Source: a virus
UHGV virus genome: UHGV-1737584
Direction: 5' to 3' (one strand)
Length of the DNA stretch: 15,092 nucleotides
The notes beneath the pieces were generated by a model, which ran no database searches, had not been told where the DNA came from, and worked only from the letters and a program-made list of their open reading frames with translations. Within the stretch, counting starts at the first letter, position 1; each line of letters opens with the position of its first letter. The position numbers were made by a program, and so were the translations under genes. Shown piece after piece: positions 9,587-13,267 of this stretch.

Positions 9587-10194
<608 letters not shown>

Positions 10195-10233
10195 TTGTCA
10201 TTTGTGACAGTATGCTCGCAATCGTAGTGATTA

Positions 10234-10773
10234 CTACCACCAACTGCTAGCTTTCTTCTCTCTAGCTTTTCCTTCGCTTTGCAGTAAATCTTTACTTCCT
10301 GTAGAAATATTTCTATTTGCATCAGCCTCAGACTGAATTACATCTGTCTTAGCTGCTCTCTCCTTCAACTCCTGCTCTATAAAATCGTTTTCTCGCTGGA
10401 CACGAGCCGCTTTTGCTTGCAGTTCGAGTTTCATGCTTTCGAGTTGCAGCTTGCGAAGCTCATCCTCATAAGCTTGATCTCGCTTCTTGTCATTTGCTAG
10501 CTCGGCTTCTCGTTTCGCTCTACGTTCATTTTCTGCAGCAACACGCTGTTTTTCGCGTGCAGCAGCGGCAGATGCTGCTTTTTCTCTTCTAATACGTTCA
10601 GCTTGTGCTTGTTGGCGAATAAGTTCTTTTCTGGCATCCTCAGCTTGCTGCTCTTTAGCTCGCCCTTCATTTTCCGCTTGAGCAATAGCAGCAATTTGAC
10701 TTTGCAACGAGTTAGCCAAGGCAGTGCCTACACTAAACGTAGAAAAGATTAGAAATAAAATAATTTTATTCAT
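10234..10773 (-). CDS. Exported (signal-peptide) coiled-coil protein, 179 aa, TolA-like charged helical repeats
   Basis: N-terminus MNKIILFLIFSTFSVGTALA is a classic Sec signal peptide. The mature part is a highly charged Ala/Glu/Arg/Lys/Gln-rich predicted coiled coil ending in SSWW. Lies in the P1 sim-locus position. Confidence 0.75.
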   Translation of the reverse strand: MNKIILFLIFSTFSVGTALANSLQSQIAAIAQAENEGRAKEQQAEDARKELIRQQAQAERIRREKAASAAAAREKQRVAAENERRAKREAELANDKKRDQAYEDELRKLQLESMKLELQAKAARVQRENDFIEQELKERAAKTDVIQSEADANRNISTGSKDLLQSEGKAREKKASSWW

Positions 10774-10776
10774 AAA

Positions 10777-11298
10777 TTATTTCTTTTCTGGACAAGTAGC
10801 ATTTGGCTGAATTCGAGTTTCATTATCTTTAGTTGAAATAAGCACAGCAAGCCCCGTTGTAAACTGGCATGCTTTACCAACTTGAGTTGAAGTGAACACC
10901 TTAGTTCCTTCTTTATAAGTCAGTGAAACACCTTCAACAATTGTTTTATCACTAACCAAAGAACCAGCCGCTGCACCAAGAGCCGCACCACCAGTACCGC
11001 CAGCTACAGCACCCAGTGTCGATGTGCCTTTAACATTATAACCGGCAACGCCCCCAGCAACAGCTCCCAGTACCGCACCAAATGTCTGTGCCGCTTCTTT
11101 ATTAGCTTTATTATCAACTTTCACTTTAGCTGGAAGCACAGAGATAATATTGACTGTCTTTGTTTCCTGCTTCGAATTCAATTGAGCGGTATCATAAACA
11201 TCGGCAGCATAATCAGCACCGCTAGATTGACACCCAGAAAGAAGAATTGCAGATACAACAAGAGCGCATAAAGTATACTTTTTAGACATAAGAATCAT
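10777..11298 (-). CDS. Lipoprotein with glycine-zipper segment, 173 aa (or 170 aa from the second ATG at complement 11287-11289)
   Basis: Lipobox LLSGC after a KK-containing hydrophobic leader (MSKKYTLCALVVSAILLSGC). Central GAVLGAVAGGVAGY...GAVAGGTGGAALGAAAGS glycine zipper, typical of SlyB/PCP-like outer-membrane lipoproteins. Two C-terminal Cys. Only 3 bp separate it from the downstream gene. Confidence 0.8.
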   Translation of the reverse strand: MILMSKKYTLCALVVSAILLSGCQSSGADYAADVYDTAQLNSKQETKTVNIISVLPAKVKVDNKANKEAAQTFGAVLGAVAGGVAGYNVKGTSTLGAVAGGTGGAALGAAAGSLVSDKTIVEGVSLTYKEGTKVFTSTQVGKACQFTTGLAVLISTKDNETRIQPNATCPEKK

Positions 11299-11565
11299 CC
11301 CGGAAAAACAAAAACCGGCGAGAAGTTACCACGAGAACGGAAAGTAAACAAGAATACTCCCATTGACTTATATCAATTAATCAACTTTTTATAAGCTATC
11401 ACTAACTTATTGTGTATAGCTGAAAAGTCAGAGACAAGTTCACCATCTGCATTATTTCTTAAGTTAATAGTTTATTGCTAACTTAATTCATGTATCGACT
11501 ATTGATAGCCATCTTAAAGTTACAATATCCCTCTGCATTATTTTTCATCACAAATAATATATCTA

Positions 11566-11596
11566 TTGCACGACACTCATCTGCTCTAATAAATTT
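11566..11596 (+). promoter_or_regulatory. Sigma70-like promoter (TTGCAC-17-ATAAAT) overlapped by a C1-operator-like site (ATCTGCTCTAATAAATTT)
   Basis: -35 at 11566-11571, -10 at 11589-11594. The 15-mer TGCTCTAATAAATTT at 11582-11596 matches the P1 C1 operator consensus ATTGCTCTAATAAATTT as I remember it (15/17) and recurs at 13253-13267. Confidence 0.6.
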
Positions 11597-11634
11597 GTAT
11601 TTTTAAGTCGCGAATGCTATCTTTTCGCATCATA

Positions 11635-11663
11635 TTGACCTTTTAATCGTTCAGGCTTATAGT
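11635..11663 (+). promoter_or_regulatory. Near-consensus sigma70 promoter TTGACC-17 nt-TATAGT, candidate constitutive promoter for the c4-icd-ant transcript
   Basis: -35 at 11635-11640, 17-nt spacer, -10 at 11658-11663. Lies ~120 nt upstream of the structured RNA and has no operator-like sequence over it. Confidence 0.6.
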
Positions 11664-11783
11664 TTCGCCGTCGTAGCAAATTCTGCGACCGGGTTTAGCA
11701 GCCTGAATGATTGTGCGGACAGCCGCAGATATCCGATATTGCGGTATTTTTGTGTCCGTAAAACCGCGTTACGCCCAAATTAT

Positions 11784-11860
11784 GGTGGGGCGTGATGGGG
11801 AGGCTTCGGCCTGCTGGTTTCACAATCGCCAGTCTGCTAACCCCGTCACGTCCTGCCACC
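11784..11860 (+). ncRNA. c4: c4-like antisense repressor RNA, ~77 nt, structured
   Basis: Nested stems read from sequence: GGUGG (11784-11788) with CCACC (11856-11860); GUGAUGGGG (11792-11800) with CCCCGUCAC (11841-11849, one G-U); internal GGC-UUCG-GCC tetraloop hairpin (11802-11811). Single-stranded segments are complementary to downstream sites at the icd RBS. The 77-nt span matches the reported length of P1 c4, but I chose the ends knowing that length. Confidence 0.55.
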
Positions 11861-11910
11861 TGTTTAGCAGCGGGTAGCAGGTTGTTAAACCTGATTGTGA
11901 GGCCGTAACT

Positions 11911-12132
11911 ATGGTTAATGCCAATCCTTGCGCACGCCAAGAATTCATCTGGCGTTTCTATTCCTGTAAAAAACACCACTATCACTTCGTCATCGCAGCA
12001 ACAGAAGACGAAGCACGCTCTCAATTGCCTGATGGTCCCTGCATTTTTACTGCCCGTTTTTCAACTAACTCGCGCAATTCACTTAGTTACTGGAACCTCC
12101 CCTTCTCTGCCGACGTTCAGGGGGATTTATGA
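11911..12132 (+). CDS. icd: Small 73-aa protein, translationally coupled to the antirepressor gene (Icd-like)
   Basis: ORF with GAGG 8 nt upstream of its ATG; its TGA overlaps the ant start (ATGA at 12129-12132). The RBS region is complementary to the upstream RNA. The 73-aa length and position match P1 icd as I recall. Confidence 0.6.
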   Translation: MVNANPCARQEFIWRFYSCKKHHYHFVIAATEDEARSQLPDGPCIFTARFSTNSRNSLSYWNLPFSADVQGDL

Positions 12133-13249: not shown

Positions 13250-13267
13250 ATTTGCTCTAATAAATTT
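13250..13267 (+). promoter_or_regulatory. Second C1-operator-like site (ATTTGCTCTAATAAATTT) in the kilA-repL promoter region
   Basis: Same 15-mer TGCTCTAATAAATTT as at 11582-11596, located 70 nt upstream of kilA. A possible -35 TTGCTC (13252-13257) and weak -10 TAAGTG (13275-13280) overlap it. Confidence 0.6.

Follow-up and report, generated by a model that had tools for sequence, protein, structure and literature searches.

A yfgH-yfgI-type envelope gene pair occupies the sim slot of a P7-type phage-plasmid and may act as an outer-membrane accessory cassette

The 15,092-nt stretch of virus genome UHGV-1737584 analysed here (the window, at its full length) belongs, according to its nucleotide matches and the annotation of phage P7, to a P7-type P1-like phage-plasmid. 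Two open reading frames (ORFs) on its minus strand, lying 3 nt apart with a lipoprotein gene first and a long-helix protein gene second, are the subject of this study (Table 1). Their region (10100-11500) showed 99.3-99.8% DNA identity with P7, SJ46, RCS47 and other records, and 100% identity with one Escherichia coli plasmid; values of 99-100% extend to many E. coli plasmids. In the P7 record, the two genes appear as upf50.5 ("outer membrane lipoprotein of unknown function") and upf50.0 ("membrane protein of unknown function"), and the notes attached to both already mention similarity to E. coli proteins. The comparisons presented below make it near-certain that the pair is paralogous to the core operon yfgH-yfgI on the E. 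coli chromosome, a kinship absent from an earlier interpretation of this DNA made from the sequence alone (hereafter the sequence-only reading), which had correctly delimited two adjacent genes with a 3-bp gap.

Table 1. Coordinates of the gene pair, its parts and the boundaries of the cassette in the window
Feature	Coordinates	Strand	Basis
Replaceable accessory cassette (P7 type) in the P1 sim slot	10206..11581	-	blastn against P1 AF234172
yfgH-like gene for a predicted outer-membrane lipoprotein, SlyB family (P7 upf50.5), 173 aa or 170 aa	10777..11298	-	YfgH identity, SlyB profile, Foldseek
Lipoprotein signal peptide and lipobox LLSG-C (Cys23, Gln at +2)	11230..11298	-	Sequence reading, regular-expression match
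Predicted glycine-zipper two-helix hairpin, residues 74-114	10957..11079	-	Sub-threshold Pfam PF05433/PF13488, AlphaFold2 helices, entropy profile
yfgI-like gene for a predicted exported long-helix protein, DUF5384 (P7 upf50.0), 179 aa	10234..10773	-	PF17358, YfgI identity, AlphaFold2
Sec signal peptide of the YfgI-like protein, cleavage after A-L-A, residue 20 (ALA/N)	10714..10773	-	Sequence reading; equals the P7 sig_peptide feature
AT-rich cassette leader, presumed promoter-bearing	11299..11581	-	About 32-34% G+C
Late promoter LPsit, left-hand cassette boundary (context)	10185..10204	-	Mapped from the P7 and P1 annotations; end of P1 homology at 10205
C1 operator Op(c4), right-hand cassette boundary (context)	11580..11596	+	2 mismatches to consensus; P7 annotation

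Homology between the window and P1 (AF234172) was found to break off at 10205, directly past the -22 box of LPsit, and to restart at 11582, inside the C1 operator of c4. The segment delimited in this way comprises 1376 bp, and its P1 counterpart is the 1513-bp simC-simB-simA segment. The cassette thus lies between LPsit/pmgC and the c4 operator, on the same strand as sim, and is flanked by the immI region (c4 RNA, icd, and ant) on one side and by the sit/tub tail operon on the other, according to the P7 annotation and Rfam. Indeed, Rfam placed the c4 antisense RNA at 11778-11863 and the a1/b1 target element at 11657-11709, just past the cassette, confirming that the immI region adjoins it. These results bear out three proposals of the sequence-only reading, namely that the genes stand between the immunity region and the tail operon, that P1-type phages carry sim at this place, and that a replacement cassette might be involved, since the P1 sim genes fill the homology gap and the pair occupies their slot exactly, boundary to boundary. 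The cassette edge falls two bases inside Op(c4), in the c4 control region. A second match to the C1 operator, with 1 mismatch, was located at 13251-13267 in the kilA/repL control region, and 2 matches were obtained in none of 200 shuffles. A 109-aa ORF (11695..12024, minus strand) overlaps the c4 RNA and the a1/b1 element and is probably spurious.

The first gene of the pair encodes a protein with 67% amino acid identity to YfgH of the K-12 lineage (E 6e-73). Its homologues have 170-172 residues, suggesting that the real start may be Met4, and the lipobox cysteine, Cys23, is unchanged throughout 34 of them. Residues 74-114 are rich in alanine and glycine with a GxxxG/A pattern, and the Pfam matches there (PF05433 and PF13488) remain sub-threshold; AlphaFold2 models helices at residues 64-88 and 94-113, and the hairpin turn between them (residues 91-100) is the most variable stretch of the mature lipoprotein in the entropy profile. 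A beta-rich C-terminal domain follows, with two family-invariant cysteines, C144 and C169. The sequence-only reading had recognised a SlyB/PCP-like glycine zipper and proposed an alignment with the SlyB family, which was found to extend over the full length, including the hairpin and the beta domain: the lipoprotein-family profile matched the SlyB structure 7OJF across residues 9-162 (E 2.5e-9), and a Foldseek search with the AlphaFold2 model returned 7ojf as top match (E 5.9e-6, probability 1.00). Because that model is of low confidence, the Foldseek result is used here only alongside the sequence-profile result. SlyB itself (7OJF/7OJG) is regulated by PhoPQ and forms rings around outer-membrane proteins and lipid nanodomains. 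It shares with the phage lipoprotein the lipobox, the beta domain, and the glycine-zipper hairpin; however, identity is only about 24%, and YfgH-type proteins add the conserved cysteine pair and an obligate DUF5384 partner gene. Genetic suppressors of yfgH are also reported to differ from those of slyB (bioRxiv 10.64898/2025.12.22.696046).

The partner gene was assigned to DUF5384 by a PF17358 match of 147.8 bits (cut-off 25) covering residues 39-179, and its product shows 47% amino acid identity to YfgI (E 9e-46). The mature part, of about 159 residues, is rich in A, E, R, Q, and K, with 41% charged residues. AlphaFold2 models the protein as one uninterrupted helix from residue 3 to residue 178, with a predicted local distance difference test score (pLDDT) of 87.6; a straight helix of the mature length would measure about 24 nm. 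No match was found in the PDB by sequence or by fold. The sequence-only reading had described a signal-peptide protein with a TolA-like charged coiled coil, of which the signal peptide and the long charged helix stand, whereas the likeness to TolA is one of composition only, no TolA match being obtained with Pfam or NCBIfam models at E <= 1. Its broader view that both products are non-virion proteins directed to the envelope agrees with the lipobox, the Sec signal, and the homology to host proteins, and thus appears sound. In DUF5384 proteins, an invariant G-x(8)-G region is followed at the C-terminus by a conserved aromatic pair (SWW, SWF(N/K), or FFK), encoded in upf50.0 at 10234-10245, which could be the place where the lipoprotein or some other partner in the envelope docks.

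On the E. coli chromosome, yfgH-yfgI is located between yfgG and guaA, and its DNA identity with the phage pair is about 69%. Gene content and order agree between the two copies, the intergenic gap is short in both, the products have almost the same lengths (173 vs. 172 aa and 179 vs. 179 aa, phage vs. chromosome), and the phage copy keeps all family-invariant residues. It differs in its location in the sim slot of a phage-plasmid behind an unrelated leader, in its G+C content (42-44% vs. 47-49% for the chromosomal genes), and in the saturation of its synonymous sites relative to the core locus. The association between both families is strict. In a DUF5384 profile search of contigs representing one genome per species, 80 loci were fetched, spanning Enterobacterales, Pseudomonas, Pasteurellaceae, Aeromonadales, Vibrionaceae, and a few others, and a yfgH-like gene was found directly upstream of the DUF5384 gene and on the same strand in 79 of them, the sole unpaired locus being a 336-bp contig. 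The window follows this arrangement, with the yfgI-like gene directly downstream of the yfgH-like gene.

Several properties of the chromosomal lipoprotein have been described. YfgH fractionates with the outer membrane, its loss causes sensitivity to sodium dodecyl sulfate/ethylenediaminetetraacetic acid and to depletion of outer-membrane biogenesis factors, its overexpression rescues such envelope defects, and it has been modelled as SlyB-like rings (bioRxiv 10.64898/2025.12.22.696046; PMC3219608). In Salmonella Typhi, SdiA induces the orthologous pair srgI-srgL, or srgIL (PMC11619404). By homology, the phage pair would be expected to combine an outer-membrane ring lipoprotein with a periplasmic helical partner, and this leads to the interpretation that we favour with middling confidence, namely that the pair is a prophage-carried accessory ("moron") cassette of lysogenic conversion that reinforces or remodels the outer membrane. 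According to this proposal, the YfgH-like product would carry its lipid on Cys23 and be directed to the outer membrane, where its glycine-zipper hairpin would insert and the lipoprotein would oligomerise into SlyB-like rings around patches of lipid or outer-membrane proteins. The YfgI-like product would be secreted through Sec, form a periplasmic rod of up to about 24 nm, and serve the lipoprotein as its obligate partner. Driven by a promoter of its own in the AT-rich leader, the cassette would provide the lysogen with a further dose, allelically distinct, of a function that stabilises or remodels the outer membrane. For the element, the likely benefit would be a tougher host envelope in the presence of detergent or bile, chelators, serum, or envelope stress, and blocking of incoming phage or conjugative DNA might be an additional or alternative benefit. 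Since outer-membrane stabilisation under stress is the only reported role of the yfgH lipoprotein, an envelope role is at least as likely as exclusion.

Four observations weigh against this interpretation. AlphaFold2 gives a poor monomer model for the lipoprotein (pLDDT 55). YfgI is not known to have a function beyond a reported sensitivity of mutants to DNA damage and nalidixic acid (cited in PMC11619404). No promoter could be called above chance in the cassette leader, so that expression of the cassette in the lysogen is an assumption. The leader is indeed AT-rich, as the sequence-only reading had stated (34% G+C in 11299-11700 vs. 47% in the window), and it contains a weak sigma-70-like -35/-10 pair at 11565..11537, 15 bp from Op(c4), although the number of such sites is within chance. 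It could not be aligned with the K-12 yfgH leader, and no leader homology was detected in other yfgHI contexts except for another P1-like element. Finally, E. coli hosts already hold yfgHI (5420 of 5426 complete genomes), which leaves the benefit of a second pair with 67% and 47% identical products unexplained and might mean that the pair does something specialised, for example exclusion, instead of simply raising the dosage.

Superinfection exclusion by the pair is plausible because of the sim slot, the exported products encoded in most other slot variants, and a remote link to TraT, although we regard it as a rather doubtful alternative. The cassette would functionally replace Sim as a superinfection- or surface-exclusion module, guarding the resident element against related phages and plasmids; as for the mode of action, it is conceivable, at the same tentative level, that ring lipoprotein and rod mask or sequester outer-membrane receptors, or that they seal the envelope against passage of the tail tube and DNA or against mating-pair formation. 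Sim itself is an exported protein that blocks entry of P1 DNA (Kliem & Dreiseikelmann 1989, as cited in PMC8546580), and the pair shares with it the slot, orientation, and boundaries, exported products, and the character of low-G+C accessory DNA. Of the five further slot variants examined, only the DUF559 type (L006) encodes no signal-peptide protein, whereas P1 sim, L004, L005, and the yfgHI allele of L096 all do; other temperate elements hold copies of the pair beside tail-fibre, antirepressor, or rep genes, which are typical "moron" positions, and the variability of the mature lipoprotein peaks at the hairpin turn. Nevertheless, the pair does not resemble known exclusion proteins. The alignment with SimA, SimB, and SimC suggested in the sequence-only reading detected no similarity, and orthology was rejected: the best BLASTP E value against these proteins and those of three other slot variants was 0.3 (0.044 pairwise), in short segments only. 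The number and type of proteins are also different, and an exclusion phenotype is known for Sim only. A likewise suggested relationship to Cor was discarded, as the PHROG Cor match (E 0.022) is confined to residues 10-54, the signal-peptide region, and neither protein matched the PADLOC defence-system models.

Phage lipoproteins that alter the host surface include lambda Bor/Iss, Cor, and T5 Llp. Like the YfgH-like protein, they are small accessory outer-membrane lipoproteins, yet the analogy is one of lifestyle only, since they are not homologous to it and are single genes acting on defined receptors or in serum resistance. Further arguments against exclusion are that the receptor of P1 is the lipopolysaccharide core and not an outer-membrane protein, and that the homologue is a core housekeeping envelope pair with conserved residues, under strong purifying selection rather than the diversifying selection expected of a receptor-masking factor. 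Within the collection of papers searched, none linked the YfgH or DUF5384 families to exclusion, and the name DUF5384 did not occur. The S144 paper is uninformative, as it lists yfgHI only as one of many regions of zero coverage in a resistant mutant, and the mentions in Dub-seq and INSeq studies are irrelevant to phage.

The link to TraT is partial. An alignment of profiles with hhalign against TraT of the F plasmid reached a probability of 86% (E 4.8e-6, 33% identity over 73 columns), spanning residues 74-148 of Upf50.5 and residues 119-211 of TraT, that is, the hairpin and a strand with the pattern K-[VI]-x-T-S-T-[QE]-x-G; the TraT query was verified as 100% identical to annotated traT products. 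This suggests that the YfgH/SlyB-type hairpin and its adjoining strand may be remotely homologous to TraT. However, the TraT Pfam model (PF05818) matched with 23.1 bits (E 7e-5), below the 31-bit cut-off, a search with the YfgH profile did not retrieve TraT chains at E <= 10, and the TraT matches of Foldseek, at ranks 2, 4, and 5, had non-significant E values (0.15-0.27). TraT (PDB 9FS5/9FSM/9E2V) forms a decameric ring and confers surface exclusion and complement resistance. TraT and, as predicted, the phage protein are outer-membrane lipoproteins of mobile elements with an alpha-helical membrane hairpin and ring oligomerisation, whereas TraT has 243 aa, a large extracellular domain, and no DUF5384 partner. 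Two papers on TraT structures do not mention SlyB. TraT is thought to have been co-opted by plasmids from chromosomal genes (PMC11733297). In parallel, the yfgHI cassette might be a genuine exclusion system repeatedly co-opted from a chromosomal envelope module, an idea that we consider unlikely; equally unlikely is its mechanistic corollary, in which a SlyB-like ring and a periplasm-spanning rod would stop phage tails and DNA or conjugative mating.

The slot between LPsit and Op(c4) was found to be polymorphic in P1-like plasmids, with at least five alternative cassettes: the P1 sim type, a type of about 1.27 kb, another of about 2.46 kb, a DUF559 type, and the yfgHI type. With a coverage of at least 80%, the yfgHI type was detected in 182 complete E. 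coli genomes, compared with 127 for the P1 sim segment, which makes it the commonest full-length occupant of the slot in these genomes, and in 161 PLSDB records. In L096, the same slot combines a second yfgHI allele (83% identity) with a DUF559 gene. Two signal-peptide proteins are encoded by the type of about 1.27 kb, and one of them represents the 52-aa SimA of P1 in its full-length form. SimA (L002, 5890-6048) is 90-92% identical to the N-terminus of a signal-peptide protein of 215 aa (L004, 2035-2682) or 172 aa (L005, 3370-3888) that is intact in other P1-like plasmids, so that P1 simA looks like a truncated remnant.

Diverged pairs, with 62-86% lipoprotein identity, were found in four other settings: next to a rep gene in a Salmonella element of about 102 kb (L009, a contig of GCA_022215705.1), at the end of a Salmonella prophage between an ORF6N gene and tail-fibre genes, at the end of an E. 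coli prophage beside torT that nearly all complete genomes lack, and in an island rich in insertion sequences. The Salmonella element of about 102 kb has PHROG matches to tail-fibre, endolysin-like, exonuclease VIII, and RepB proteins; megablast detected nothing similar to it in the phage collection and, in the plasmid collection, a short repB match of 72.5% identity only, and it may represent an undescribed phage-plasmid type. Phage TL-2011b was rejected as an independent carrier because the stretch in question is host chromosome, 99.2% identical to K-12-lineage DNA. Its last 3.5 kb approximately (L013, JQ011317.1 41251-44784) comprise the end of guaA, yfgI, yfgH, yfgG, and pdeF, and this host flank probably seeded the PHROG families for YfgH- and YfgI-like proteins.

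The same data bear on the explanation that the pair is a passenger without selected function, that is, a chromosomal piece that recombined into a hot spot and was carried along. In its favour, phage P1 packages host DNA. In P1-like elements, the sim region is moreover known as a hot spot of low G+C content with recently acquired DNA, and its variability is published (PMC6906374, PMC9603915). Nevertheless, both ORFs are intact and at least 99% identical in 165 E. coli records, and dN/dS (the ratio of non-synonymous to synonymous divergence) ranges from 0.04 to 0.10 for both genes against the nearest alleles, including the comparison between the two P1-slot alleles, with dS >1. Synonymous sites are saturated against every other allele, that of the E. 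coli core locus included, and no chromosomal donor with more than 90% identity was found. Thus, the cassette is old, it is under constraint, and it was not captured recently from the E. coli core locus. Since, in addition, only the two genes recur in several unrelated elements, and the neighbouring chromosomal genes never travel along, a mere passenger is highly improbable.

A role in the lytic cycle, with the pair co-transcribed into the sit/tub late operon and holding the outer membrane until timed lysis or assisting in the release of tails or virions, seems hardly probable at all. The pair does share the orientation of LPsit and the tail operon and lies only 30 bp upstream of them, no canonical terminator was found between it and LPsit/pmgC, where terminator calls are within chance and there is just an 18-nt inverted repeat without a T-run, and one record labels the pair as tail proteins. 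However, the cassette is located upstream, not downstream, of the late promoter, the content of the slot is dispensable and interchangeable, sim being non-essential for lytic growth of P1 in a CRISPR interference screen (PMC10695390), and other P1-like elements lack the pair. The lipobox, the Sec signals, and the host homology also speak against virion proteins. On the same grounds, lipobox and 67% identity to YfgH, two sets of labels in public records were rejected as mislabels, namely "DNA methyltransferase" for the YfgH-like lipoprotein (RefSeq and the label of PHROG 1277) and, in phi456, "minor tail protein" and "tail tip protein" for the two genes; the records concerned are NC_050152, NC_031129, NC_042128, NC_019445, and OR339795.

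Annotation of the two genes in P7 dates back two decades, and the variability of the sim region as a hot spot is published (PMC9603915, PMC6906374). The present analysis adds an explicit assignment to yfgH-yfgI, shows that the pairing with DUF5384 is strict and that the pair recurs in several temperate elements, and contributes the frequency of the cassette relative to sim and the remote link to TraT. P1-like phage-plasmids, which often carry resistance genes, are common in E. coli and Salmonella. If the pair does strengthen the outer membrane, these elements would alter the tolerance of their hosts to detergents, bile, serum, and some antibiotics; if it excludes phages or plasmids, a new exclusion mechanism would be at hand. 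In that case, DUF5384 would gain a functional assignment and the core yfgHI operon a possible second role, and repeated co-option for exclusion would hint at an anti-invasion role for the chromosomal genes.

The 18-nt inverted repeat downstream of the pair (10154-10171/10183-10200) is 89% complementary, with an 11-nt loop. It overlaps the -10 and -22 elements of LPsit, reaches the pmgC/tubA start codon, and is conserved with P1, features for which late-promoter architecture or a hairpin in the 5'-untranslated region are candidate roles.

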